From the NCBI GenBank assembly GCA_051882495.1, contig JBJERX010000108.1:16291-80290 (forward strand): a stretch of DNA of 64,000 nucleotides, written 5' to 3'. The position numbers and the translations under genes are program-made. The DNA is from Huintestinicola sp. Lineage in GTDB: Bacteria; Bacillota; Clostridia; Oscillospirales; Ruminococcaceae. Shown here one piece after another: positions 14,150-63,775 of this stretch (position 1 is the stretch's first letter; each line of letters opens with the position of its first letter). The notes below the pieces were generated by a model. That model did not search any database, was not told the origin of the DNA, and saw nothing but the letters and a program-made list of their open reading frames with translations.

Positions 14150-14252
14150 ATCTATTATAACATATTTTGATAAGTATTACAAGTAATTTTTTCATATGGA
14201 GCTGATACCGTGATAATTCTGTCTTTATCCATATATCAGCGGGCTATTAATA

Positions 14253-14412
14253 ATACTAATTCCAAATCAACCTATAGACAAATCCTCGGATATAATGATC
14301 CAATTCTGCGTCAAGCTCCCTTGCCGGGCAGCAAGCCCGCCTGCGGTCGCTTTCCTTGACTTGGATTATTCTATCTGTCGGCTTTGTCTATAGAACGATT
14401 TGGAATTAGTAT
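14253..14412. repeat. 160-bp palindromic MITE/REP-like element, copy 1
   Basis: 30-bp imperfect terminal inverted repeat ATACTAATTCCAAATC-aac/gtt-CTATAGACAAA; core shared with 18745-18905. Confidence 0.85.
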
Positions 14413-14469
14413 AACTTGCCAAAAAATACGGCAAATTTATATGAAATATCGGAAAATTACATTTTTCTA

Positions 14470-18686: not shown

Positions 18687-18744
18687 TTAAGGAACCTGAA
18701 TAAATCATGCCTAAAGGGTCGGCACGCATCTTGCCTGCAGATTT

Positions 18745-18905
18745 ATACTAATAACCATTTAACCTATGGATAAAATACGGCGGCTATAATGCGTCCACTC
18801 TGCGTCAAACTCCCTTGCCGGGCGAAAGCCCGCCTGCGGTCGTTTTTCTTGATAGAACGCATTCTATCCACCGTCTTTATCCATAGAACAAATGGTTATT
18901 AGTAT
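18745..18905. repeat. 161-bp palindromic MITE/REP-like element, copy 2
   Basis: Arms ATACTAATAACCATTT-aac/gtt-CTATGGATAAA; core ctgcgtcaa.ctcccttgccgggc..aagcccgcctgcggtcg shared with copy 1. Confidence 0.85.
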
Positions 18906-49349: not shown

Positions 49350-50420
49350 ATGGACCTTAAAAGCTTTTACAAAGGGAAAAAAGTCCTCATAACGGGGCAT
49401 ACAGGCTTCAAAGGCTCATGGCTTTGCAGGATACTTGCAGGCTTCGGAGCGGAGGTGACAGGCTATTCTCTTACGCCCCCAACATCCCCCTCGCTGTTTG
49501 AGCTTGCGGAGGTTGAAAAGGACATCACTCACATTGTGGGGGATATCAGAGACCTCGACAGCCTTAAAAAAGTATTTGAGGAAAAGCGTCCCGAGATAGT
49601 TCTTCATCTTGCGGCTCAGCCTATTGTAAGGGAGAGCTATAGGAATCCCCTTGATACCTATGAGATAAATGTTATGGGCACAGCCAATATCCTGGAGTGC
49701 GTCCGTCTTACCGACTGCGTCAAGTCCTTTCTGAATGTTACTACCGATAAGGTTTATCTCAATCGTGAGTGGGAATGGGGCTACCGTGAGACAGACGAGC
49801 TGGATGGCTATGACCCTTATTCCAACTCCAAATCCTGTTCCGAGCTGGTGACACATTCATATAAAAACAGCTTTTTCTCCGACGGCAGAACAGCCATTTC
49901 CACCGCCCGTGCGGGAAATGTTATCGGCGGCGGAGATTTTGCTTCTGACAGAATAATCCCGGACTGCATCAGAGCAGCAGAAAAGCATGAGGATATAATC
50001 GTCAGAAATCCTTTTTCAACACGTCCCTATCAGCACGTTCTGGAGCCGCTTTTTGCATATCTGCTCATTGCTGCAAAGCAGTATGAGGATATCTCCTATG
50101 AGGGATATTACAATGTTGGTCCCGATGATAACTGCTGCTTTGAGACAGGCAGGATAGTTGATCTCTTTACTGAAAAATGGGGAGATGGTATCAAGTGGGT
50201 CAATAAGTATGACGGCGGACCTCACGAAGCTAATTTCCTGAAGCTTGACTGTGCTAAGATAAAGACTAAATTCGGCTGGAGACCTACCTGGGAGCTTCCC
50301 GAGACTATGGATAAAATAGTTGAGTGGACAAAGCTTTATATCAGCGGGGCATCTGCCATTGAGCTGAAAGAATGTATGGACAGGCAGATAAATGAATTTA
50401 TGGAACAGATGAATAAATAA
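49350..50420 (+). CDS. rfbG: CDP-glucose 4,6-dehydratase (DdhB)
   Basis: ITGHTGFKGSWL, HLAAQP, TTDKVY, DPYSNSK, RAGNVIGGGD, RPYQHVLEPL, HEANFLKLD. Confidence 0.95.
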   Translation: MDLKSFYKGKKVLITGHTGFKGSWLCRILAGFGAEVTGYSLTPPTSPSLFELAEVEKDITHIVGDIRDLDSLKKVFEEKRPEIVLHLAAQPIVRESYRNPLDTYEINVMGTANILECVRLTDCVKSFLNVTTDKVYLNREWEWGYRETDELDGYDPYSNSKSCSELVTHSYKNSFFSDGRTAISTARAGNVIGGGDFASDRIIPDCIRAAEKHEDIIVRNPFSTRPYQHVLEPLFAYLLIAAKQYEDISYEGYYNVGPDDNCCFETGRIVDLFTEKWGDGIKWVNKYDGGPHEANFLKLDCAKIKTKFGWRPTWELPETMDKIVEWTKLYISGASAIELKECMDRQINEFMEQMNK

Positions 50421-50441
50421 TTTTGAAAGGAATCGTATAAA

Positions 50442-51788
50442 ATGAGCAAGTGGAATACCGAAGCAGAGGCAAGAGATCAGATAAAGGCTCTTGTTGCTGA
50501 TTATTACCATAACTTTAAGGAAAATAAGGCTCCCTTTGAAAAGGGCAACAGAATAAGCTATGCATCAAGAGTATTTGATGAAAAGGAAATGTGTGCACTT
50601 ACCGATGCTATGCTTGATTTTTGGCTTACCACAGGCAGATTTGCCGATGAATTTGAGAAGGAGTTTGCAAAGTGGATAGGCGTAAAGCATGCACATCTTG
50701 TAAACAGCGGTTCTTCCGCAAATCTTATTGCATTTATGGCACTTACCGCACCTGAGCTTGGCGACAGACAGATAAAGAGAGGGGACGAGGTCATTACTGT
50801 AGCCTGCGGCTTCCCCACAACTGTCACACCTATTCTTCAGTACGGGGCAGTGCCTGTTTTCGTTGATGTGACCGTTCCTCAGTATAACATTGATGTGAAC
50901 GCACTTGAAGCGGCTCTCAGCGATAAGACCAAGGCTGTTATGATAGCACATACGCTGGGAAATCCCTTTGACCTTAAGGCTGTAAAGGCATTCTGTGATA
51001 AGCATGGTCTCTGGCTTGTAGAGGATAACTGCGACGCTTTGGGCACACAGTACACCATTGACGGTGAGACACGCTTCACAGGCACATGGGGAGATATAGG
51101 CACATCAAGCTTCTATCCTCCTCACCACATGACTATGGGCGAGGGCGGCTGTGTTTATACCAATGACCCCAAGCTTTCAAGACTTATCCTTTCTTATCGT
51201 GACTGGGGAAGAGACTGCATCTGTCCTTCGGGCAGGGACAATTTCTGTAACCATCGTTTTGACGGACAGTTCGGTGAGCTTCCTCAGGGCTACGACCACA
51301 AGTATGTTTACAGCCATTTCGGATATAATCTTAAGGTTACGGATATGCAGGCAGCTGTAGGCTGCGAGCAGCTGAAAAAGTTCCCTTCATTTATTGAGAG
51401 ACGCCGTCACAACCATGACAGGCTCCTTAAGGCTCTTGAATGCGTAAGCGACAAGCTTATCCTTCCCGTTCCCGCCGAGAACAGCCGTCCTTCCTGGTTT
51501 GGCTTCCTCATTTCCGTTAAGCCCGAAAGCGGCAGGACAAGAAACGAGGTCACAAAATATATTGAATCCCACAATATTCAGACAAGACTGCTTTTCAGCG
51601 GCAACCTTATCAAGCACCCCTGCTTCGACCAGATCAGAGGCACAGACGCTTACAGGATTGCAGGCAGCCTTGAAAATACCGATTTTATTATGAATAACAC
51701 CTTCTGGGTGGGGGTTTATCCCGGTATGACAGATGAGATGATAGATTATATGGCTGAAGTTATTATTGAGGCTGTGAAGTATGAATGA
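50442..51788 (+). CDS. rfbH: CDP-4-keto-6-deoxyglucose 3-dehydrase E1 (DdhC)
   Basis: SFYPPHHMTMGEGG has His in place of the aminotransferase Lys; GRDCICPSGRDNFC..YDH fits the E1 Fe-S ligand pattern. Confidence 0.92.
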   Translation: MSKWNTEAEARDQIKALVADYYHNFKENKAPFEKGNRISYASRVFDEKEMCALTDAMLDFWLTTGRFADEFEKEFAKWIGVKHAHLVNSGSSANLIAFMALTAPELGDRQIKRGDEVITVACGFPTTVTPILQYGAVPVFVDVTVPQYNIDVNALEAALSDKTKAVMIAHTLGNPFDLKAVKAFCDKHGLWLVEDNCDALGTQYTIDGETRFTGTWGDIGTSSFYPPHHMTMGEGGCVYTNDPKLSRLILSYRDWGRDCICPSGRDNFCNHRFDGQFGELPQGYDHKYVYSHFGYNLKVTDMQAAVGCEQLKKFPSFIERRRHNHDRLLKALECVSDKLILPVPAENSRPSWFGFLISVKPESGRTRNEVTKYIESHNIQTRLLFSGNLIKHPCFDQIRGTDAYRIAGSLENTDFIMNNTFWVGVYPGMTDEMIDYMAEVIIEAVKYE

Positions 51789-52767
51789 TACAAAGAAAAC
51801 CGTAAGCGTGGTAATTCCTACCTATAATGAAATAGAAAATGTTCAGGCAGTTGCAGATGCGGTAGTGAAAGAGTTAACGGATAATCTGCCCGAGTATAAC
51901 TATGAGCTGCTGTTTATCGATAACAAGTCCACTGATGGTACAAGAGATGTTATCAGAAAGCTCTGTTCCGAAAATCCGTGTATCAAGGCTATTTTTAATA
52001 TAAAGAATTTTGGACCCGACAATTCTCCGTATTATGGTCTGCTTCAGGCAACGGGTGACTGTGTGATCCCATTTAGCGCTGATTTTCAGGATCCTATTGA
52101 AATGATACACAAAATGGTTCGAGAATGGGAAAAAGGAAATAAGGTAATAACAGCAATAAAGCAAACAAGCCGTGAAAACAAGCTGCTGCGTTTCTTAAGA
52201 ACAATTTATTATAAGTTGATCCGCAAAATATCAAGCACCGAGATAATAGAACATTTTACAGGTTTCGGACTTTATGATCGTTCATTTGTGGATATACTTC
52301 GTTCGATAAATGATCCAGTCCCGTTCTTCAGAGGGGTTGTGGCAGAGTTCAGCGACAGTCGGTTGGAAATGCCCTATGAGCAGCAGAAAAGAAGAGCGGG
52401 GAAGAGTCATATAAGATTTTTCACTCTATACGATATGGTAATGAGGAGCATAACCTCGTATACAAGGATAGGTTTGCGCATAGCTACGCTTATTGGATTC
52501 GGAACTGCAGCAATTTCGCTGCTGGTTGCTGTTATTTACTTTATATATAAGCTTTTAAATTGGGATAGCTTCAATACGGGTATGGCTCCTGTTGTTATTG
52601 GCATATTCTTCTTCAGTTCAATACAGCTTGCATTTCTCGGACTGATGGGAGAATATGTTATGAGTATAAATAACAGGATAATTAACAGACCATTGGTAAT
52701 AGAAGCTGAAAGAATAAATTTTGTCAGCTCCGAAATAACAACCTTATCGGATAAAGACAGCTTATGA
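51781..52767 (+). CDS. GT2 polyprenyl-phosphate glycosyltransferase (GtrB-like)
   Basis: VVIPTYNE, FIDNKSTDGT, SADFQDP, RRAGKS, two C-terminal TMs. Confidence 0.85.
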   Translation: MNDTKKTVSVVIPTYNEIENVQAVADAVVKELTDNLPEYNYELLFIDNKSTDGTRDVIRKLCSENPCIKAIFNIKNFGPDNSPYYGLLQATGDCVIPFSADFQDPIEMIHKMVREWEKGNKVITAIKQTSRENKLLRFLRTIYYKLIRKISSTEIIEHFTGFGLYDRSFVDILRSINDPVPFFRGVVAEFSDSRLEMPYEQQKRRAGKSHIRFFTLYDMVMRSITSYTRIGLRIATLIGFGTAAISLLVAVIYFIYKLLNWDSFNTGMAPVVIGIFFFSSIQLAFLGLMGEYVMSINNRIINRPLVIEAERINFVSSEITTLSDKDSL

Positions 52768-52800
52768 TAATATATGATATGTCACGGAGGCATAAAATTG

Positions 52801-53859
52801 ATGAATGCACAAATAAAGCTGCTTGACTGTACTCTCAGAGATGGCGGATTTGCTCTTGAAGATGCGGAAAAAAATAATATTTCTGCAGGCACATTTTCAG
52901 AGGATGATAGGAATCATATAGCACAGAAGATGACAGAAAGCGGTGCGGAAATAATCGAGCTTGGAGCTATTGAGGTCACTCCTTCCGACAGAAAAGGCTT
53001 TGCCATTTACCCGGATATCGAAAGCATCTCTGCTGTGATGCCTCCGAAAAAGAACAGCAGCCAGCTTTATGCAGGCTTTTTCAGGGGGCCCGACAGACCT
53101 CTTGAGGAAATCCCGCCCTATTCCGAGAATATGCTGGAAGCTGTAAGAGTTTGTCTCAGATATTCCGAGCTGAGGAAATCCCTTGATTACTGTAAGGGAC
53201 TATGCGAAAAAGGATATAAAGTATTTATTCAACCAATGGTCACTGCACGCTATACGGATGAGGAGCTTTCTCTTCTTACCCAAGAGGCAAACTCTATGGG
53301 AGCATATGCTCTGTACTTTGTGGACAGCTACGGCTTTATGACCGAGGAGGATGTGGCGTATTATTTCGGACGATTTGACCGTGAACTTGCCCCCTCAATC
53401 AAAATAGGCTTTCACGCCCACAATAATATGGAAATGGCACTGCCCAATGTATTGTCCTTTATAAAAAATTGCGGAAGCAGAGAAATAATTATTGATTCCT
53501 GTGCCGACGGTATGGGACAAGGCACGGGCAATCTCCAGACCGAGATAATTATGAATTATCTCAACAGGATGTATGGCAAGAACTACTGCCTAGATAAGGT
53601 CTTCGATGTATGTGAGACTATAGGGAAATTTAATTCAAACAGGCTTTGGGGTTACCTGCCTGCAAGATTTATTCCTGCTGTGAATGGCACCGCCTACAAA
53701 TATGCCTTGGCATTAAAAAATAAGTATGGAATGAGCCTCGCAGAAATACACAGCATTCTCAGCAATATCTCTGAAGAGCTGAGATACAGATATACTCCCG
53801 AAAATGCAGAAAAGCTTGTTATTGACAGTGGGATCTATGTAAATAAGGATGGTAAATAA
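52801..53859 (+). CDS. DRE-TIM (HMGL-like) aldolase, 4-hydroxy-2-oxovalerate aldolase-like
   Basis: LLDCTLRDGG, YFVDSYG, GFHAHNN metal site, GMGQGTGN. Confidence 0.8.
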   Translation: MNAQIKLLDCTLRDGGFALEDAEKNNISAGTFSEDDRNHIAQKMTESGAEIIELGAIEVTPSDRKGFAIYPDIESISAVMPPKKNSSQLYAGFFRGPDRPLEEIPPYSENMLEAVRVCLRYSELRKSLDYCKGLCEKGYKVFIQPMVTARYTDEELSLLTQEANSMGAYALYFVDSYGFMTEEDVAYYFGRFDRELAPSIKIGFHAHNNMEMALPNVLSFIKNCGSREIIIDSCADGMGQGTGNLQTEIIMNYLNRMYGKNYCLDKVFDVCETIGKFNSNRLWGYLPARFIPAVNGTAYKYALALKNKYGMSLAEIHSILSNISEELRYRYTPENAEKLVIDSGIYVNKDGK

Positions 53860-53861
53860 GT

Positions 53862-55529
53862 ATGACTGTTGCCGAATATATCGTTAGCGAGATGATAAAA
53901 TGCGGTGTAACAGATGCCTTTGGTATACCGGGTGGAGTTATATTAAAGCTGCTTGCTGCAATGAAAAAAGCAGAACCGGTTCTAACTCCTCATCTGACAT
54001 ATCACGAGCAGACAGCAGGCTTTGCGGCTCTCGGTTATGCTCAGTCAAGCGGAAGGTTAGGTGTTGCTTATTCAACAAGAGGACCTGGTATTACCAATAT
54101 GATTACCTGTATTGCTGAAGCATATCAGGAATCGCTGCCCGTGCTGTTTATCACAGCTCATGGCAGGCGGATGGAGAATAATGTAAGATTTAACGATAAT
54201 CAGGAGCTTGAAGTAGTCAGCTGCATTTCAAAATTCACCAAATTTGCAGCTAATGCCGATACTCCCCACGATGCAGCTAAAATGCTCAAAAAAGCAATTA
54301 ACATTGCGGTGAGTGGAAGAAAGGGACCTGTTTTTCTTGATTTTGCGGCATCCGTTTTCGATAATGAGATTTCTGACGTACCCGAAGAGCATACGGTTTT
54401 GGAGGATAATAGCTCTGTTTCAAAAGCTGCAGATAATGCGACGAAGTTGCTTTCCTCTGCAAAGCGTCCGATATTGCTTATTGGTGACGGACTTAGATAT
54501 TATTCAAAGGACAAACTTAAGAAAATTGCAGAAACACTTAAGATCCCCGTGCTTTCAAGCAGAGGTTCTCAGGATCTTTTGGGAGGCTCGGAGTATTATT
54601 TCGGGTATGTGGGCAGCCACGGTGTAAGATACAGCAACTTTATCCTTTCAAAGGCAGACCTTATCATTGCTGTGGGAAACAGAATGGCATTCCCTCTAAA
54701 CTCGGCAAGCTTTTCTCCTGTTATCAATAATGCAATCATATTCAGAGTGGATATTGATGAAAATGAGCTGAGCCGTCATATTCCTAATGAATATGCTTTT
54801 GCTTGTGACGGCGGAATGTTTCTTGAACTGCTTATGGGGAAGTATCATTTTGAACAAGGCACCGAAGGCTGGCTTGACGTTTGTCGATGCCTTAAAAGAG
54901 AGCTTATTGATGAGGACTGCAATGAAACAGTAAGAAGACTGTCATCATTCATGTCTGCACAGTCTGCCGGAAAGCATTATGTCTGTGATGTTGGAAATAA
55001 TGAATTCCTGTTTTCAAGGGCATATGAGTACATTGGCTCAGAAGATAGTATATGCTGCTCAAAATCCTTCGGTACCTTAGGTTCTTCTATAGGACGTGCT
55101 ATTGGTGTATATTATGCATCCGGCGGAGAAGTTATCTGTGTATGCGGAGATCAGGGCTTTCAGTATAATTCACAGGATCTGCATTATATTTCTCAATGGA
55201 AGCTTCCAATCAGGATAGTTTTACTGAACAATTCCCGCTCGGGAATGATAGCAGATCACGAAAAGAATGTGCTGGGTGATATGAGAATTCATATTGATGA
55301 AGGATCGGGCTACAAAACTCCTGATTTTGCCAAGGTTGCTCAATGCTACGGTATAGAGTATACATCAGATCAGGATACTGCCTGTATGGATAATAATGAA
55401 CCTTTGCTTTATGAGATAAAGTCTGACGAGTGCGGTATCCTTTCACCTTCTTTACCAAAAGGAAATCCCTGTCAGGATATGTTCCCTCTTCTTGACAGAA
55501 ATAAATATGAGTATCTTGATAAACTTTGA
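53862..55529 (+). CDS. Acetolactate-synthase-like ThDP enzyme (YerE-like carboligase)
   Basis: FGIPGG, HEQTAGFAA, RGPGITN, GRKGPVFLD, ThDP motif CGDQG..LLNN; glycan-locus context. Confidence 0.8.
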   Translation: MTVAEYIVSEMIKCGVTDAFGIPGGVILKLLAAMKKAEPVLTPHLTYHEQTAGFAALGYAQSSGRLGVAYSTRGPGITNMITCIAEAYQESLPVLFITAHGRRMENNVRFNDNQELEVVSCISKFTKFAANADTPHDAAKMLKKAINIAVSGRKGPVFLDFAASVFDNEISDVPEEHTVLEDNSSVSKAADNATKLLSSAKRPILLIGDGLRYYSKDKLKKIAETLKIPVLSSRGSQDLLGGSEYYFGYVGSHGVRYSNFILSKADLIIAVGNRMAFPLNSASFSPVINNAIIFRVDIDENELSRHIPNEYAFACDGGMFLELLMGKYHFEQGTEGWLDVCRCLKRELIDEDCNETVRRLSSFMSAQSAGKHYVCDVGNNEFLFSRAYEYIGSEDSICCSKSFGTLGSSIGRAIGVYYASGGEVICVCGDQGFQYNSQDLHYISQWKLPIRIVLLNNSRSGMIADHEKNVLGDMRIHIDEGSGYKTPDFAKVAQCYGIEYTSDQDTACMDNNEPLLYEIKSDECGILSPSLPKGNPCQDMFPLLDRNKYEYLDKL

Positions 55530-55543
55530 TCGGAGGAACGTTT

Positions 55544-57301
55544 ATGTATATCGAAAATATCAGCAGTCCAGCAGATTTGAAAAAGCTATCAATGGATGAA
55601 TGTGAAGCTCTTGCTTCCGAAATTCGTTCAATGCTTATAAAAAAAGCTTCTATTAATGGCGGACATCTTGCTTCTAATCTGGGTATGGTCGAAGCAGCTA
55701 TAGCTCTGCACTATGTATTTGACTCACCTTCCGATAAGATCATATTTGACGTTTCTCACCAGTGCTATACCCATAAGATACTTACCGGCAGAAAAGCTGC
55801 ATTTACTGATGTGGATAAATACTCCTCGGTAAACGGCTATACAAATCCTGATGAAAGTGAGCACGATCTGTTTAAGGTAGGTCATACTGCAACATCCATA
55901 AGCCTTGCCTGTGGTCTTGCAAAGGCAAGAAACATCAGAGGCGGTAAAGAAAGCATTATTGCAGTTATCGGAGATGGTTCGCTAAGCGGAGGAGAAGCTT
56001 TTGAAGGGCTTGATTTCGGCGGTTCTGATATTGAGGGTAATTTTATTGTGCTTTTCAATGACAATCAGATGTCTATTGCGGAAAATCACGGCGGCATCTA
56101 CAATAATCTTGCTCTGCTCAGAAATACTGAGGGAAAAGCTGAAAATAATCTTTTTAAGGCCTTTGGATATGACTATATTTTTGTTAAGGATGGCAACAGT
56201 ATAGTGCAGATTGTGAATGCACTCAGAGAGGCAAAAGAGCTTGACCACCCTGTCGTTGTTCATATATGCACGGTAAAAGGAAAAGGCTATGACTTTGCCG
56301 AAAGCCACAAGGAAAGCACTCATTGGGTAAAACCCTTTAATATTGACAGCGGACTTGAAAAAAATCCTTTTAACGGAGAACGCTACGACAGGCTCATGCG
56401 AGATCACCTAATCGAAAAAATGGAAGAGGATCCCAATGTAGTTACAATGATAGCTGCTGTCCCCGATTCGCTCAATTTTACTGCCGAACACAGAAAAAAG
56501 GCAGGGAAGCAGTTTGTTGATGTAGGTATTGCAGAGGAGCATGCTGTTTCTATGGCGGCTGGTCTTGCAAAGAATGGCTGCAAGCCCGTTTTTGCCACAA
56601 TGTCTACATTCTTCCAGAGGACATATGACCAGATATCTCAGGAACTATGTATCAACAATACGCCTGTCACTCTTCTTGTAATAAATGCTTCTGTTTATTC
56701 AGTAAATGATATTACTCATATTGGAATATTCGATATTCCAATGATGTCAAATATACCGAATCTTGTGTATCTTGCTCCCACAAATAAACAGGAATATCTT
56801 GCCATGACGGACTGGAGTATAGATCAGCAGCAATATCCGGTAGCAATAAGAGCACCCAGAAACGGTGTGTATAATGCAAAGGACGATGTTGACACCGATT
56901 ACAGCTGTCTTAACAAATATAAGGTCGTTACAAAAGGTGAAAAGGTTGCTGTCCTTGCATTAGGAAGCTTTTTCCAGTTGGGCGAGGAGATTTTGAAAAA
57001 AATTTCAGACAGCCTTGGTTTTGTACCTACACTGATAAATCCGAGATATATCACGGGTATTGATAACGAGCTTCTTGAAAGACTGAAAAAGGATCATGAT
57101 GTCGTTATTACTCTGGAGGACGGCGTTCTTGACGGCGGATGGGGTCAGAAGATAGCATCATTCTATGGTAATTCTGAAATGAAGGTACTGAATTATGGAC
57201 TGAAAAAAGAATTCCTCGACAGATATGACTTGAACAAGGTCATGACCGAGAATCGCCTCATACCTGAGCTTATCCTTGAAGATATCAGGGGAATTCTTTG
57301 A
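55544..57301 (+). CDS. DXS-like ThDP carboligase 1 (short type, 585 aa)
   Basis: GGHLASNLG, FDVSHQ, GDGSLSGG..NDN, IAEEHA, TFFQRTYDQ; GGAGG RBS before ATG 55544. Confidence 0.85.
   Translation: MYIENISSPADLKKLSMDECEALASEIRSMLIKKASINGGHLASNLGMVEAAIALHYVFDSPSDKIIFDVSHQCYTHKILTGRKAAFTDVDKYSSVNGYTNPDESEHDLFKVGHTATSISLACGLAKARNIRGGKESIIAVIGDGSLSGGEAFEGLDFGGSDIEGNFIVLFNDNQMSIAENHGGIYNNLALLRNTEGKAENNLFKAFGYDYIFVKDGNSIVQIVNALREAKELDHPVVVHICTVKGKGYDFAESHKESTHWVKPFNIDSGLEKNPFNGERYDRLMRDHLIEKMEEDPNVVTMIAAVPDSLNFTAEHRKKAGKQFVDVGIAEEHAVSMAAGLAKNGCKPVFATMSTFFQRTYDQISQELCINNTPVTLLVINASVYSVNDITHIGIFDIPMMSNIPNLVYLAPTNKQEYLAMTDWSIDQQQYPVAIRAPRNGVYNAKDDVDTDYSCLNKYKVVTKGEKVAVLALGSFFQLGEEILKKISDSLGFVPTLINPRYITGIDNELLERLKKDHDVVITLEDGVLDGGWGQKIASFYGNSEMKVLNYGLKKEFLDRYDLNKVMTENRLIPELILEDIRGIL
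57068..57295 (+). repeat. 228-bp direct repeat, copy 1 (3' end of DXS-like 1)
   Basis: 227 of 228 bases identical to 60137-60364 (offset 3,069 bp), compared by eye. Confidence 0.95.
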
Positions 57302-57337
57302 TTATAATCCTATTGATAAAGGAGTAACTGCATAGAA

Positions 57338-58333
57338 ATGAAAGATATAACTATATTAGTTACAGGTGCCACGGGTTTATTGGGCTATAATCTTGTTAAT
57401 CAATTGATTGACAGGGACGTAAAAGTAATTGCATTGGGAAGAAGCGAAGAAAAGCTTCGTAACTGCTTTAACGAACATATCGGAAAAGATTATTTTTCAT
57501 ATATAGCGTCTGATATTTCCGGGCTAAAGTTACCTATAGATGAACCAATCGATTGTATTTTTCACGCAGCAGGATCGATTGAATTGAAAACAATAGTCGA
57601 GCAACCAATGAATATTGTAAATCCTAACAGTTTAGGCACTATTTCCTGCTTGGAATTCTTAAAAGAACAAGAAATAAGGAGCGGTAAAAGAGGAAGACTC
57701 ATTTACTTCTCCAGTGAAGCAGTATATGGTAAAAGCAGCAATGATAGACGGGTCACAGAGGAGGATACGGAAATATCCGATTCGCTTACAGTCCAAAGAT
57801 CACCCTACTCACATTCCAAAAGGATCGGAGAAGTAATTGTAAACGGCTATCACAAGCAATATAACACCGATTCATTGAGTGTGAGACTTTCCTGGGTATA
57901 TGGAAATGCAAAAATCAGACCCAAGCAAGCACTGTTTGATTTTATTCAAACCGCTCTTGAGGGAAATGATATAATAATCAGAAACGCCAACACTCCCAGA
58001 CGAGATAATATCTGCATGAAGGATGCTATGGAAGCATTGATCTGTATAGCTCAGAAGGGAACGGCAGGGGAGGCTTATAACATTTCTTCAGGCGGAGACT
58101 GCGGCAATTTCGCGTCGGCTGCCGAGATCGCAGAGATCGTTGCTGATATTGTAAACAGCAAACAGTATTCACCCAAGCCTGTACATGTGCTTTACGAAAA
58201 TGAATTATCCAAAAGAGAAGGCGGGATTATTATGGACAATTCCAAGCTTAAAATGCTGGGATGGGACATAACAACTGGACTTCGTGATGGAATTGAAAAG
58301 TTAATAGATGAGGTAAGAAACAATGTATATTGA
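57338..58333 (+). CDS. Extended SDR (NAD(P)-dependent NDP-sugar reductase/epimerase)
   Basis: VTGATGLLG, SSEAVYG, YSHSK catalytic YxxxK, RLSWVYG. Confidence 0.85.
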   Translation: MKDITILVTGATGLLGYNLVNQLIDRDVKVIALGRSEEKLRNCFNEHIGKDYFSYIASDISGLKLPIDEPIDCIFHAAGSIELKTIVEQPMNIVNPNSLGTISCLEFLKEQEIRSGKRGRLIYFSSEAVYGKSSNDRRVTEEDTEISDSLTVQRSPYSHSKRIGEVIVNGYHKQYNTDSLSVRLSWVYGNAKIRPKQALFDFIQTALEGNDIIIRNANTPRRDNICMKDAMEALICIAQKGTAGEAYNISSGGDCGNFASAAEIAEIVADIVNSKQYSPKPVHVLYENELSKREGGIIMDNSKLKMLGWDITTGLRDGIEKLIDEVRNNVY

Positions 58334-60110
58334 AAAGATCAACAGTCCCGCGGACTTAAAAAAATTATCAATTGATGAGTGTAAGGTATTAGCAGATGAG
58401 ATGAGGCAGACACTGCTAAATAAACTAAGCGTTACAGGCGGACATCTGGCACCGAATCTTGGTGTCGTTGAGGCAGTGATAGCATATCATTATGTTTTCG
58501 ATTCTCCCTATGATAAAATCGTTTTCGATGTATCCCATCAATGCTATCCTCATAAGATGCTCACAGGAAGAATGGAAGCTTATACAAAGCCTGAGAAATA
58601 TTCATCTGTAACAGGATTTACTGAAATTACTGAAAGCGAACACGACTTTTTTACTGTAGGTCATACTTCAACCTCAATCAGTCTCGCCAGCGGTATGGCT
58701 AAGGCACGAGATCTGAAGGGTGACAAAGAGAATATAATTGCATTTATCGGAGACGGCTCATTAGGCGGTGGTGAAGCATTTGAGGGACTTGATTATGTGG
58801 CCTCTGAAATAAATAGCAATTTTATTATCATATTAAATGATAATGGAATTTCCATAGCTGAAAATGTAGGTGGGCTGTATAAGAACTTAAAAGAACTCCG
58901 CGATACAAACGGTACTTCTCAAAACAATATATTTAAGGCTCTGGGACTTGATTATAGGTTTGTAGAAAATGGAAATGATATTCCTTCTTTAGTAGAAACA
59001 TTGCAGGAAGTTAAGGATATTGATCATCCGGTAGTAGTGCATATTTGTACAGTTAAGGGTTATGGATATACATATTCGGAAAGTAACCCTGAGATGACTC
59101 ATTGTCTTAATAAACCTTTCGATATTGAAAAGGGTCCTGATTTTACTCCATTTAAGTTTGTTGAAGGAAAGAATGAAAGATATGATTATATAATCAGAGA
59201 ACACCTTATTGACCGAATGAAAAAAGATCCTCTTATTACCACAATTATGGCATCAACAATGTACTGCCTTTCTTTTACGAAAGATAAGCGGGAAGAAGCC
59301 GGAAATCAGTTTGTTGATGTAGGGGCGGTAGAGGAACATGGTATTGCGATGACTGCCGGCGTAGCACGAAATGGAGGCAAACCTGTATTCGTAACTGCAT
59401 CTACTTTCTATATGCGAACATATGACCAGATATCTCAGGAATTATGTATAAATAAATGCCCTGCTACATTAATTGTAGTCAATGCTTCCGTGTATGCAGT
59501 TGATGATGTTACACATACTGAAATATTTGATATCCCTATGATGTCAAATATACCGAATCTGGTATATCTTGCTCCCACAAACAAGCAGGAATATTTAGCA
59601 ATGTTGGATTGGAGTATAGATCAGACAGAGTATCCTGTTGCAATTCGTCAGCCTAGAAATGGTGTTTTCTATGCTAAGGGTGAAGTGGATAAGGATTATA
59701 GCGATCTAAATAAGTATAAGATTGAAATATGCGGCAGCAAGGTTGCAATTATTGCCCTGGGAGAATTCTATCAGTTGGGAGAATCAGTTGTCGATTTATT
59801 AGAGAAAAGAACAGGAATAAAAGCTACACTAATAAATCCCAGATATATAACCGGAATTGACGAAGCACTGCTGAGAAGTCTTCCTGAAACGCATAGTTTG
59901 ATAGTAACACTTGAAAGCGGCTCACTGAACGGAGGATTTGGAGAAAAAATTGCATCTTTCTATGGACCTGATAACAGAGTAAAAGTTCTTAACAGAGGTT
60001 TGAAAAAGGAATTCCTTGATACGGTTCATATGAGTACTGCGAAATTACTGGAAGATTTGCGCCTGACAGACGAGTTACTATGTGATGATATTGAAAGCTG
60101 TCTGAATTGA
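58323..60110 (+). CDS. DXS-like ThDP carboligase 2 (595 aa)
   Basis: GGHLAPNLG, DVSHQ, GDGSLGGG..NDN, AVEEHG, TFYMRTYDQ; clear paralog of DXS-like 1. Confidence 0.85.
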   Translation: MYIEKINSPADLKKLSIDECKVLADEMRQTLLNKLSVTGGHLAPNLGVVEAVIAYHYVFDSPYDKIVFDVSHQCYPHKMLTGRMEAYTKPEKYSSVTGFTEITESEHDFFTVGHTSTSISLASGMAKARDLKGDKENIIAFIGDGSLGGGEAFEGLDYVASEINSNFIIILNDNGISIAENVGGLYKNLKELRDTNGTSQNNIFKALGLDYRFVENGNDIPSLVETLQEVKDIDHPVVVHICTVKGYGYTYSESNPEMTHCLNKPFDIEKGPDFTPFKFVEGKNERYDYIIREHLIDRMKKDPLITTIMASTMYCLSFTKDKREEAGNQFVDVGAVEEHGIAMTAGVARNGGKPVFVTASTFYMRTYDQISQELCINKCPATLIVVNASVYAVDDVTHTEIFDIPMMSNIPNLVYLAPTNKQEYLAMLDWSIDQTEYPVAIRQPRNGVFYAKGEVDKDYSDLNKYKIEICGSKVAIIALGEFYQLGESVVDLLEKRTGIKATLINPRYITGIDEALLRSLPETHSLIVTLESGSLNGGFGEKIASFYGPDNRVKVLNRGLKKEFLDTVHMSTAKLLEDLRLTDELLCDDIESCLN

Positions 60111-60388
60111 GTCAAATCTTTTCAGAGTATGTTAATGAGCTTCTTGAAAGACTGAAAAAGGATCATGATATCGTTATTACTCTGGAGGACGGCGTTCTTG
60201 ACGGCGGATGGGGTCAGAAGATAGCATCATTCTATGGTAATTCTGAAATGAAGGTACTGAATTATGGACTGAAAAAAGAATTCCTCGACAGATATGACTT
60301 GAACAAGGTCATGACCGAGAATCGCCTCATACCTGAGCTTATCCTTGAAGATATCAGGGGAATTTTTAACAATTGGCACACTGTATGA
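60107..60388 (+). pseudogene. Duplicated C-terminal fragment of DXS-like 1
   Basis: Encodes ELLERLKKDHD..EDIRGI from the 228-bp repeat; no catalytic domains. Confidence 0.85.
60137..60364 (+). repeat. 228-bp direct repeat, copy 2
   Basis: One mismatch versus 57068-57295 (g57101 / a60170). Confidence 0.95.
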
Positions 60389-60397
60389 TGCGGCAAT

Positions 60398-60571
60398 GCT
60401 CCCGTACTTATAGGAGTATTCCTTCTCGGCGGAATTCAGCTTTTCTTTATCGGACTGCTGGGCGAATACATAATGTCAATAAACACCAGAGTCATGAACA
60501 GACCTTTGGTTATTGAAGAAAAAAGACTGAATTTTGATGATCCTCATGATGAAAAAGAGGACAGAGAATAA
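60398..60571 (+). pseudogene. 3' remnant of a second GtrB-like GT2 gene, absent from the ORF track
   Basis: APVLIGVFLLGGIQLFFIGLLGEYIMSINTRVMNRPLVIEEKRLNF..* parallels APVVIGIFFFSSIQLAFLGLMGEYVMSINNRIINRPLVIEAERINF of 51781-52767; in-frame stop at 60386-60388, no start. Confidence 0.85.
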
Positions 60572-60609
60572 TTTCGGTCATAATATTTCCGTATGAGGGA
60601 GCTGAACCA

Positions 60610-61086
60610 ATGCAATCAATAAAGCAGTTTTTAAAATTCGGCATAGTCGGATTATCCAATACTCTTATTTCGCAGATCATATACATGATAGCAGTCTCCC
60701 TTGGTGCTCACTATCTTGCAGCCAGCGTGATCGCTTTCATTATCAGTGTGCTGAATGCATTTTTCTGGCAGAATAAATTTGTTTTCAAGGAGGAAGAGGA
60801 CAAGGAGAAAAGAGTATGGTGGAAGGTTCTTCTGAAAACCTATGCAGCTTACGCCTTTACGGGTCTGCTGCTGAATAATCTTCTCCTGATAATGTGGATA
60901 GACCTTATCAGGATCGAAAGCTTCACTCCTGCACTCACTGATCTTGTGAACAGCTTCGGTATCAATATAAGCAATCATGATCTGGCTGTTGATATAGCTC
61001 CTCTTCTTAATATTGTTGTGAATGTGCCCATTAACTTTGTGATTAATAAATTCTGGGCTTACAGGCAAAAAAAGGTTGCATCTTAA
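60610..61086 (+). CDS. GtrA-family lipid-linked sugar translocase
   Basis: QFLKFGIVGLSNTLI, NAFFWQNKFVF, INFVINKFWAY; four TMs. Confidence 0.9.
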   Translation: MQSIKQFLKFGIVGLSNTLISQIIYMIAVSLGAHYLAASVIAFIISVLNAFFWQNKFVFKEEEDKEKRVWWKVLLKTYAAYAFTGLLLNNLLLIMWIDLIRIESFTPALTDLVNSFGINISNHDLAVDIAPLLNIVVNVPINFVINKFWAYRQKKVAS

Positions 61087-61282
61087 AGACATGCTGTCTC
61101 AGATGTTTAGTCAGATGATGTATTATGGTGGTAATCAGAGCTGATTTATAGCATTCTTTGTCGGAAATCATTACTTATATTTGCGAGCAAATACAGCTTT
61201 GTTTTCCGGAAAACGTTAAAAAGTATGTGTTGATACGACATAGTGCCGTTTAGACCAAATTGTTTATTTATGAGGTGAATTT

Positions 61283-63775
61283 ATGTTTTCGGATCTGGAT
61301 AAAAGCTCGGCGTATATCCTTCGCAGATCTTTTAAGGAAACATCTCTGGATGTATGCGATGAAGATACTTTGAAATATTCCGCTCTGTATGAGGATCTGC
61401 TGAGAAAAAAGGACAGCATTGACAAACAGGGATATATTGCACCCGCATTGCTTCCTATAGGAAAAGATGGTGTGGTCAATATTCGTCTGCTGCTTCCTTT
61501 TGAAGGAGTTCATTTTATAAATATGGCATATATGGTCATTCTTGGCAGAGTACCCGAAAAAGCGGCTATGGACTCATTGCAGAAAGCATTGGCTGCAAAC
61601 AGCAGCAAGGAAGCTAAGATAAAGATCCTGAGAACAATAGGATCTTCCAATGAAGCTAAGTCCCGGGGAGCGATCCTTACGGGTTATGACAAAGTAAAAA
61701 CTTCCCAGCTTTACAGATATCAGGATATGGAGTTCATAGAGAATGCATATATAAGGATCCTTCTGAGAAGGCCCGATGACAAGGGCAGAAAACGCTTTCT
61801 TTCCATGCTCAGATCACCCGAATACTCTCCTGCCGAGATATTATACACGCTCCGTCATTCCCCCGAAGGTGAAAAGCATGGCGTTGAGATCGTAGGTCTG
61901 GAAAATGACTACCGCAGGAGAATGAAACGTAAAAAGATTATGAGTATACCTGTGATAGGCAGGTGTATAAGATATATCTCACGGCTCCTCGGTGTAAACA
62001 GGAGAATACTTGCTCTGAAAAATGAGATCAGTTATTTGTGGGATAAGCTGTATAGCAGCAGATCGGCTCTTGATGACAGGATCAATTCGTTAACTCTGCA
62101 GCTTTCCGATAGGATAGACGCAGGAAACAGAAAAACTGCAGCACTTGAAAGACAGATCAGGGAACAGACAGGCAGAATAAACAAGCTTGCCAAGCAGTAT
62201 GAGACGGAAAACGATAGACTTGCGGAGCTTGCCGAGCGGTATGAGACGGAAAATGACAGACTTGCGGAGCTTGCCGAGGAGTATGAGACTGCCAACAGCA
62301 GGCTTACTGAGCTTGCCGAGCGGTATGAAAATGCCAACAGTAGATACAAGGAGCAGTATAAGTCTGTAGAAAGCCGTTTAACGGAGCTAGATGACTTTAC
62401 CCATCAGACAGACAGCATTATTGGTGAACTGAATAAGACACAGGATGAACATTATAAACTTCTGAACGAGCAGTCTGATGTCATCACCCGTCTGTCTGAG
62501 GAATCAGACAGGAGAAGCACTTTCTACGAGACACGCTTCGGAGAGCTTGATGGCTATACCCACCAGATCGGGGATAATGTCAATGCTCTGAACAGCTCAA
62601 TGGAGCGTTATGGCAATACACTGAACGATCAGTCCGCTGCAATCACACGCCTGTCTGAGGAATTAGACAGGAGAAGCAGTTCTTATGAGAGCAGCTTCAG
62701 AGAGCTTGACGGCTATACCCACCAGATCGAGGACAATGTCAGTGATCTGAACAGTGTATCAGAGAGTTATGGTAATTTGCTGAATGAACAGTCCGATGCC
62801 ATCACCCGTCTGTCGCAGGAATTAGACAAGAGAAGCACATCCTATGAGAGCAGCTTCGGAGAGCTTGACGGCTATACTCATCAGATAGGCGGAAACGTTG
62901 CTGATATCAATAAAGCACTGTCCAACTATGACAACATTCTGTCGGAATATGTTAATGAGGATAAAAAGACCATTCAGATGCTCCTTGCAGAGATATTCAA
63001 GCTGAAAACAGAAATTAAGGCTCTGAAAAACGGCGGGGTAAGAAACGCTGAAGCAGCTCCAAGTCAGAGTGAGGAGACTGCTCCTTCCGCTGTACCCGCT
63101 TCCGATGTGTATAGTGCAATAGAATACTTTGATTTTGAAAATCATTTCAGAGGAAGCAGAGAGCACGTCAAGTCTGTTCAGAAGATCTATCTCCCATATT
63201 TTGAGGGCAGGAAGAATGTGCTTGACCTTGGCTGCGGAAGAGGTGAATTCACCGAGCTGCTCAGGGACAATAATGTGGGCGTTACAGGCGTGGATATGTA
63301 TGAGCCTTATGTTGAATATATGAGATCTCTGGAGCTGCCTGTGGTTCTTGATGATGCAGTTGCTTATCTGAGTCGTCAGGAAAGCACTGACGGAATCTTC
63401 ATGGGACAGGTGGTAGAGCATTTGTCCGTTGATCAGATCGTGACAATATGCAATATGGCGTATGAAAAGCTTGAGGAAGGCAGCTGCCTTATTATGGAAA
63501 CTCCTAATCCAAAATCTCTCGCGATTTTTACAGAGTGCTTTTATATGGATCCTTCCCATCAGAAGCCTGTGCATCCCTTTACACTGAAATATATTGCTGA
63601 AAAGGCAGGCTTCACAAAGGTGGATATCCTTTATACAGACAGCAGCAGACTGCCATTCAGTATACCTAAGATCAAAGAAGACGAGCCTGATTTTGATAAG
63701 TTCAATGAGGCTATGCAGAGAGTGTCCGAGCTTTTATATGGCAGTCAGGATTACGCTGTGATCGCAAGAAAGTAA
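61283..63775 (+). CDS. DUF4214-like x2 / repeat coiled coil / class I SAM methyltransferase (WbdD/WsaE-like glycan chain terminator)
   Basis: FINMAYMVILGRVP and FIENAYIRILLRRPD repeats; long heptad-rich linker; FENHFRGSRE, VLDLGCGRGEF, QVVEHL, ETPNP, FYMDPSHQKP, QDYAVIARK. Confidence 0.75.
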   Translation: MFSDLDKSSAYILRRSFKETSLDVCDEDTLKYSALYEDLLRKKDSIDKQGYIAPALLPIGKDGVVNIRLLLPFEGVHFINMAYMVILGRVPEKAAMDSLQKALAANSSKEAKIKILRTIGSSNEAKSRGAILTGYDKVKTSQLYRYQDMEFIENAYIRILLRRPDDKGRKRFLSMLRSPEYSPAEILYTLRHSPEGEKHGVEIVGLENDYRRRMKRKKIMSIPVIGRCIRYISRLLGVNRRILALKNEISYLWDKLYSSRSALDDRINSLTLQLSDRIDAGNRKTAALERQIREQTGRINKLAKQYETENDRLAELAERYETENDRLAELAEEYETANSRLTELAERYENANSRYKEQYKSVESRLTELDDFTHQTDSIIGELNKTQDEHYKLLNEQSDVITRLSEESDRRSTFYETRFGELDGYTHQIGDNVNALNSSMERYGNTLNDQSAAITRLSEELDRRSSSYESSFRELDGYTHQIEDNVSDLNSVSESYGNLLNEQSDAITRLSQELDKRSTSYESSFGELDGYTHQIGGNVADINKALSNYDNILSEYVNEDKKTIQMLLAEIFKLKTEIKALKNGGVRNAEAAPSQSEETAPSAVPASDVYSAIEYFDFENHFRGSREHVKSVQKIYLPYFEGRKNVLDLGCGRGEFTELLRDNNVGVTGVDMYEPYVEYMRSLELPVVLDDAVAYLSRQESTDGIFMGQVVEHLSVDQIVTICNMAYEKLEEGSCLIMETPNPKSLAIFTECFYMDPSHQKPVHPFTLKYIAEKAGFTKVDILYTDSSRLPFSIPKIKEDEPDFDKFNEAMQRVSELLYGSQDYAVIARK
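62184..62351 (+). repeat. Four 42-bp (14-aa) coding tandem repeats
   Basis: Units start at 62184, 62226, 62268 and 62310 (agcttgcc..); consensus ELAERYETENDRLA. Confidence 0.9.
62384..62947 (+). repeat. About 3.5 copies of a 159-bp (53-aa) coding tandem repeat
   Basis: ELDGYTHQ-type unit starts at 62384, 62543, 62702 and 62861. Confidence 0.9.

Follow-up and report, generated by a model that had tools for sequence, protein, structure and literature searches.

Within a 64,000-nt stretch of a Huintestinicola sp. genome (GenBank assembly GCA_051882495.1, contig JBJERX010000108.1; the whole stretch is referred to here as the window, and all coordinates are window coordinates), a near-perfect 228-bp direct repeat brackets two genes of a surface-glycan operon. 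A repeat search and pairwise alignment showed that the left copy (R1; 57068 to 57295) and the right copy (R2; 60137 to 60364) share 227 of 228 bases and that their starts are 3,069 bp apart. This repeat is probably the scar of a recent local rearrangement (i.e., a duplication plus deletion or a template switch) that also truncated a neighboring gene for a family 2 glycosyltransferase (GT2). The preliminary description of this DNA had reported the direct repeat around genes for a short-chain dehydrogenase/reductase (SDR) and a second DXS-like enzyme; the repeat and its coordinates were borne out, but the junction of R2 with a truncated GtrB-like GT2 gene had gone unmentioned. The features concerned are listed below (aa, amino acids; ThDP, thiamine diphosphate; ORF, open reading frame). 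The segments upstream of R1, between the repeats, and downstream of R2 are designated U, L, and D, respectively, and R denotes the repeat.

49332 (start), + strand: CDP-hexose 4,6-dehydratase-like SDR
50442 (start), + strand: E1-like DegT enzyme
51781 to 52767, + strand: GtrB-like GT2, intact
52774 (start), + strand: HMGL-type aldolase
53862 to 55529, + strand: ALS/YerE-like ThDP enzyme, 555 aa (Pfam TPP_enzyme_N/M/C)
55526 to 57301, + strand: DXS-like 1, 591 aa from a TTG start (Pfam DXP_synthase_N, Transket_pyr, and Transketolase_C)
57068 to 57295, + strand: R1, in its native place, comprising the codons for NELLERL...EDIRGI of DXS-like 1
57338 to 58333, + strand: SDR, 331 aa (Pfam Epimerase/GDP_Man_Dehyd)
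58323 to 60110, + strand: DXS-like 2, 595 aa, a paralogue of DXS-like 1 (62% aa identity)
60111 to 60136: linker of 26 nt between the DXS-like 2 stop codon and R2
60107 to 60388, + strand: chimeric ORF, 93 aa, comprising the linker, R2, and eight codons of the GT2 remnant
60137 to 60364, + strand: R2, the displaced 228-bp copy of the DXS-like 1 3' end
60365 to 60571, + strand: 3' remnant of a GtrB-like GT2 gene, ~65 codons, in the same frame as R2
60610 to 61086, + strand: GtrA-like flippase gene (gtrA), the first intact gene past the scar (Pfam GtrA_DPMS_TM)

All operon genes from 49332 to gtrA were on the + strand. DXS-like 1 comprises 585 aa if translated from the ATG at 55544, which was the start assigned by the gene caller, and the 3' end of the SDR gene overlaps the start of DXS-like 2 by 11 nt.

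A search of the whole assembly detected exactly two copies of R. In a self-comparison of the 2.93-Mb assembly, the R pair ranked second longest among the repeats with at least 97% identity and is thus far beyond chance. The sole mismatch was a G at 57101 (R1) versus an A at 60170 (R2); on either side of it, the copies match exactly over 33 and 194 nt. A scan for promoters and terminators was uninformative, as it returned fewer sites than did shuffled sequence and just one weak hairpin, which lay within R itself.

The two copies differ in their surroundings. R1 is contained in the last 234 nt of DXS-like 1 and ends two codons ahead of its stop. The 3' end of the gene, the stop codon, and the downstream spacer on the R1 side aligned with the corresponding regions of a same-genus genome (G005; 80% nucleotide identity) and of an ENA metagenome contig (L025), and the G005 sequence matched the R1 side, not the R2 side. 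The junction between R1 and the SDR was likewise common to the window and L025. Judged from this sequence context, R1 is the native 3' end of DXS-like 1 and R2 is a truncated extra copy. R2 begins in the middle of the DXS1 reading frame, 26 nt past the stop codon of DXS-like 2; it lacks the first 513 codons (the 5' 1.5 kb) of the gene as well as the last two codons and the stop. At its other end, it continues in frame into what is left of a destroyed GtrB-like GT2 gene, namely, its last ~65 codons, just upstream of gtrA. This remnant exhibited 65% aa identity to the C terminus of the intact GT2 (51781 to 52767) and, over its last 35 codons, 71% identity to the GT2 of genome G011. It holds the codon register around a ...NW......G.AP motif and contains an in-frame TGA (60386 to 60388). 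The region from 60111 to 60609 is thus a patchwork of a linker, a DXS1 fragment, and a GT2 stump. One copy in a conserved native context, another that is truncated and out of context, and a neighboring GT2 gene cut down to its last ~65 codons are the marks of a duplication/deletion scar.

The 93-aa ORF that runs through this patchwork had no Pfam match, and gene calling on the Logan contig with its start at 60335 (see below) did not report it. It is probably not a gene, and we infer that neither it nor R2 has a function of its own. Neither the ORF nor the GT2 stump should be annotated as a gene.

The window was compared with related loci, as the preliminary description had suggested. L025 was collinear with the window from 50305 to 60107, with the order DegT-GT2-HMGL-ALS-DXS1-SDR-DXS2, in which DXS1 and DXS2 denote the DXS-like 1 and DXS-like 2 types. 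The overall DNA identity was ~79% (70 to 87% in every 300-nt bin), and there was no step at the borders of the supposed cassette. The likeness ended at the DXS2 stop codon, where IS66 debris followed, and there was no R2. Given the presence of this gene order at ~79% identity in a locus without R2, the DXS1-SDR-DXS2 arrangement must be far older than a repeat whose copies differ at 1 of 228 positions. R2 was also absent from every other related locus that we read, and an exact 55-nt core of the repeat had no match in the Joint Genome Institute (JGI) metagenome contigs or the GTDB representative genomes. An exact look-up of the full-length DXS1 returned no record. Among 24 same-genus genomes, a close DXS1 was detected only in G005 and a close DXS2 in none, and a near-ancestral state was not found. 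The gtrA neighborhoods of G005 and G012 had no GT2 gene upstream and were thus of no help regarding the state before the event.

The genes between the repeats are widely shared by related loci. Both DXS types occurred together in five further lineages (L027, L028-30, L031, L034-37, and L042, the last being a metagenome-assembled genome [MAG] labeled Gemmiger sp.). The order was SDR-DXS2-DXS1 in L027, L028-30 (with a truncated SDR), L034-37, and L042, while DXS2 and DXS1 were apart in L031. An intact SDR gene directly upstream of the DXS2 type was present in three of the five (L027, L034-37, and L042); it was truncated in L028-30, and there was none in L031. The remains in these last loci consist of a 119-aa ORF at L029:9652-10011 (also in L030), an uncalled stretch at L028:9604-10001, and a 420-nt gap without an SDR at L031:1834-2254. 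Gene stumps and shuffled gene orders are common in this locus family. The SDR orthologues, which were always just upstream of the DXS2 type, were 83% identical to the window SDR at the aa level in L025 and 59 to 61% identical in L034 and L042. The DXS-like 1 orthologues in G005 and L025 were 87% identical. Across L025, L027, L028, L031, L034, and L042, the two DXS types formed distinct orthologue groups (DXS1, 74 to 87% aa identity within the group; DXS2, 78 to 91%; ~60% across groups). All of the nearest DXS2 relatives (72 to 91% aa identity) were in loci that also held a DXS1-type gene, an aldolase, an ALS-like enzyme, and CDP-sugar genes, and the placement of the ALS/YerE-like gene beside HMGL-like and DXS-like genes was kept in all related loci. 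These similarities suggest that DXS1, the SDR, and DXS2 are old native neighbors in a pathway whose predicted product is a CDP-activated, acyl-branched 3,6-dideoxy sugar.

The repeat junctions were attested outside the assembly. In three sequencing runs (SRR30616815, SRR30616808, and SRR30616802), the Logan k=31 contigs were 100% identical to the window, and their ends all lay exactly 30 nt inside the repeat borders (i.e., U ended at 57097, L spanned 57266 to 60166, and D started at 60335). Such breaks at the borders of R are what a word graph is expected to produce where a repeat has two copies, and it follows from their positions that all four repeat/flank junctions are present in the raw data. 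These contigs attest the junctions alone; the linear order U-R-L-R-D rests on the assembly, a short-read, scaffolded MAG (N50, 34 kb; 100-N gaps) in which the repeats retained do not exceed 280 bp. At 194 nt, the longer exact run is above the largest word sizes usual for short-read assemblers, and the path through R was therefore probably chosen from read pairs.

We infer the following order and type of events. A 228-bp piece of the DXS-like 1 3' end would have been copied to a point 26 nt past DXS-like 2, and the same or a second event would have removed the sequence from there to approximately codon 255 of the downstream GtrB-like GT2 gene. One possible route is a tandem duplication of the 3,069-bp unit (R-SDR-DXS2 plus 26 nt), which would create the joint between the linker and R, followed by the loss of the DNA between the end of the second R and a point within the GT2 gene. 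Another is a single replication template switch in which 228 nt were copied (a templated insertion) and the 5' part of the GT2 gene was bypassed. The integration of an equivalent circle is a third route in a formal sense. Both new joints would be illegitimate, with at most a few bases of putative microhomology. Beyond the borders of R, the likeness between the two sides was weak and extended 7 nt leftward (5 of 7 bases) and 3 nt rightward (2 of 3 bases). At the left joint, the last 7 nt of the linker (TGTTAAT) correspond to TGATAAC before R1, for which our own binomial chance estimate is ~0.03; at the right joint between R2 and the GT2 remnant (CTT versus TTT), at most two bases (TT) are shared. 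At the single variable site (57101/60170), both L025 and G005 carry an A, as does R2. R2 would thus keep the older base, with R1 having changed since (Ile to Val), unless R2 came from a sister allele.

Several points weigh against this account of a local rearrangement. The candidate routes (duplication plus deletion, template switch, and circle integration) are indistinguishable at the sequence level, and no closer relative with an intact GT2 gene after DXS2, which would represent the state just before the event, came to light among the sequences compared. The fusion of R2 with the GT2 remnant is in frame, for which the chance is 1 in 3, and this could hint at a fusion that was once expressed. 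In four other lineages, DXS1 directly follows DXS2, where R2 sits in the window, which fits an older relic if the two copies were held alike by gene conversion. The order is that of the assembly, and a homogeneous population is presumed.

The preliminary description had offered a recent Campbell-type gain of the bracketed genes as one explanation, and direct repeats of a homologous segment do flank the intervening DNA here, as they would in an integrated cassette or a Campbell-type insertion. Under this explanation, a circular R-SDR-DXS2 molecule would have entered, through a single crossover in R, a chromosome that already carried DXS1 joined to the GT2 remnant (ending ..GIFNNWHTV). In formal terms, such a crossover would yield the structure observed, and the A at 60170 (R2) versus the G in R1 is compatible with copies that stem from two alleles. 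However, three events would be required (a prior deletion, the formation of a circle by an illegitimate join, and its integration), together with a chromosome of the U-R-D form, in which the flanks are joined without SDR-DXS2. No trace of that form was found in the relatives read, the JGI metagenomes, or the GTDB representatives. The idea of a recent gain is contradicted by the DXS1-SDR-DXS2 order and the R1-SDR joint that are common to the window and L025, which lacks R2, with even divergence along the locus at ~79% nucleotide identity, and by five lineages in which both DXS types, in most cases with the SDR, are conserved as members of the pathway. The G+C content was 0.35 to 0.41 throughout ~55000 to 61700, without a step across the bracketed unit. 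No recombinase genes were present within the 3,069-bp unit, in which the SDR and DXS-like 2 are the only genes, and searches of plasmid and phage collections returned only distant DXS homologues and no close match to the unit. Neither an empty site in relatives nor a foreign signature or mobility functions were observed. We therefore consider such a gain improbable. The bracketing of the two genes stands, but the term accessory cassette does not, since the SDR and DXS2 are an old native part of the pathway.

A relic of an older gene order also appears unlikely. In that case, the ancestor would have had the order SDR-DXS2-DXS1, a duplication would have placed a copy of DXS1 in front, and R2 would be the last piece of the downstream DXS1, homogenized with R1 by gene conversion. 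A DXS1 type directly after a DXS2 type, exactly in the place of R2, is present in L027, L028-30, L034-37, and L042, and the structure of the window resembles an intermediate in the permutation of gene order by duplication. Nevertheless, L025 has DXS1-SDR-DXS2 at ~79% nucleotide identity without a relic, so that the relic must be old, yet R1 and R2 differ at 1 of 228 positions. In addition, the 26-nt linker showed no likeness to the DXS2-DXS1 spacers of the other loci and had no ribosome-binding site, and two further sharp-ended deletions would be required. An assembly artefact or a mixture of strains, in which the MAG threaded a loop of the assembly graph while the real molecules were U-R-D in one strain and another form carrying L, is a shade less probable again. 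The assembly features and the 194-nt exact run described above leave room for such an error, as does the fact that the k=31 contigs back the junctions but not the order. On the other side, the junction between L and R2 (i.e., the linker followed by mid-gene DXS1) is in the raw data, with contig L017 ending at 60166, and has no place in a normal locus, so that a molecule with L followed by R exists. No simpler path than U-R-L-R-D passes through every unique segment once, and the G/A difference shows that there are two distinct copies.

The repeat has a predicted consequence. The preliminary description had proposed that recombination between R1 and R2 would delete the SDR and DXS-like 2 while DXS-like 1 stays open, and our recomputed product agreed. 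In the predicted deletion product, DXS-like 1 comprises 591 aa from the ATG at 55544 and ends in ...EDIRGIFNNWHTV instead of ...EDIRGIL, with a new 9-residue tail that makes it 6 residues longer than the native protein. Among DXS1 orthologues, the C-terminal tail differs in both length and sequence; the new tail is thus probably tolerated, and the predicted enzyme probably still works. At 228 bp and 99.6% identity, a repeat offers RecA ample substrate for occasional deletion or amplification and is well above the length minimally required for efficient recombination. With an exact run of 194 nt and 228 nt in all, the two copies would serve as an incidental substrate for RecA-dependent deletion, or for amplification by unequal exchange, of the 3 kb that hold the SDR and DXS2. 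Occasional loss of this segment is to be expected if the organism is cloned or cultured.

That the repeats are kept as a selected population switch, in which RecA-dependent excision or amplification of the SDR and DXS2 varies the sugar side chain among cells, is in our view improbable. The length and identity of the repeat would permit it, as would the open DXS1 of the deletion product with its probably tolerated tail, and some related loci are without an intact SDR (L028-30 and L031), so that partial pathways may be viable. Against this, the excised 3-kb circle has neither replication nor integration functions; without means to persist, it would make the deletion an irreversible, one-way loss. 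In the JGI metagenomes and the GTDB representatives searched, R2 was found in no other genome; it was also absent from L025, and its absence from all related loci read speaks against a conserved device for repeat-mediated phase or antigenic variation. The site within gene debris points to an accident rather than to such a device. We give even less credence to the more specific notion of a RecA-driven device that removes or amplifies the ketoreductase and DXS-like 2 genes in a gut or rumen population and thereby gives a branched surface sugar another side chain. If it were true, it would represent glycan variation by programmed gene loss without a site-specific recombinase.

As the probable scar of a local rearrangement, the repeat is of little importance in itself and is ordinary for a recombination-prone glycan operon. 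It suggests that the gene order and content of such operons are reshuffled by small illegitimate events, which fits the DXS1-SDR-DXS2, SDR-DXS2-DXS1, and split orders and the stumps observed among the related loci. Biologically, the genes between the repeats are of greater interest, in that a branched-sugar pathway holds two conserved DXS-like ThDP enzymes; this is a separate finding. The SDR is a candidate side-chain ketoreductase of the YerF/ErwF type by analogy, and a GtrB/GtrA-type route may deliver the branched sugar. Enzymes of the DXS-like family occur widely among gut anaerobes. Within CDP-deoxysugar loci of gut anaerobes, the two groups of ~590-aa DXS-like ThDP enzymes always co-occurred with an HMGL-type aldolase and a YerE-like enzyme. 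More distant relatives are annotated as DXS on megaplasmids (e.g., Clostridium acetobutylicum pSOL1).

Other repeats were noted in and around the window. An 830-aa methyltransferase-domain gene (61283 to 63775) contains tandem 42-bp repeats at 62184 to 62328 (three copies found, 82 to 90% identical to the first) and tandem 159-bp repeats at 62462 to 62938 (three copies, 73 to 80% identical to the first). A family resembling miniature inverted-repeat transposable elements (~165 to 180 bp; 97 to 99% identity) is represented at 14251 to 14415 and 18742 to 18905 of the window and on many contigs, among them C12, C45, C52, C59, C83, C104, and C142. At L025:12156-12320, a copy with 86% identity to the element at 14251 to 14415 is located between two ORF fragments of an IS66 transposase and may have split that gene.

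Acyl-branched deoxysugars are made via an aldolase, a ThDP enzyme of the YerE/ErwE type, and a reductase of the YerF/ErwF type (Steitz et al. 2022; PMC9306805). The loci for yersiniose (YerE/YerF) and erwiniose (ErwI/ErwJ/ErwE/ErwF) described there resemble the present operon in their CDP-hexose 4,6-dehydratase, E1-like DegT enzyme, HMGL-type aldolase, ALS/YerE-like ThDP enzyme, and SDR. Unlike those loci, the operon has two extra DXS-like ThDP enzymes in its conserved set as well as a GtrB/GtrA-type delivery pair. This likeness concerns the genes between the repeats and not the repeat itself. Regarding the repeat, a Campbell-type insertion-duplication is similar in that the intervening DNA has a copy of the homologous segment on either side, in direct orientation, and that reversal by recombination between these copies is possible. 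It differs in that the intervening genes here are native and conserved without the second repeat, that there are no vector, plasmid, or integrase functions, and that the ancestral downstream context is with the left copy, not the right. The closer parallels are the remnants of segmental (tandem) duplications and the joints of microhomology-mediated rearrangements known from bacterial chromosomes, including the gene debris at the borders of surface-polysaccharide loci. The insertion in the window, unlike typical duplication remnants, is just 228 bp between two new joints, with a route that is not reconstructible from one genome. As in such remnants, however, there is a near-identical short copy of a gene end, the joints are illegitimate, the neighbors are truncated, and no mobile-element genes lie within the bracketed unit.

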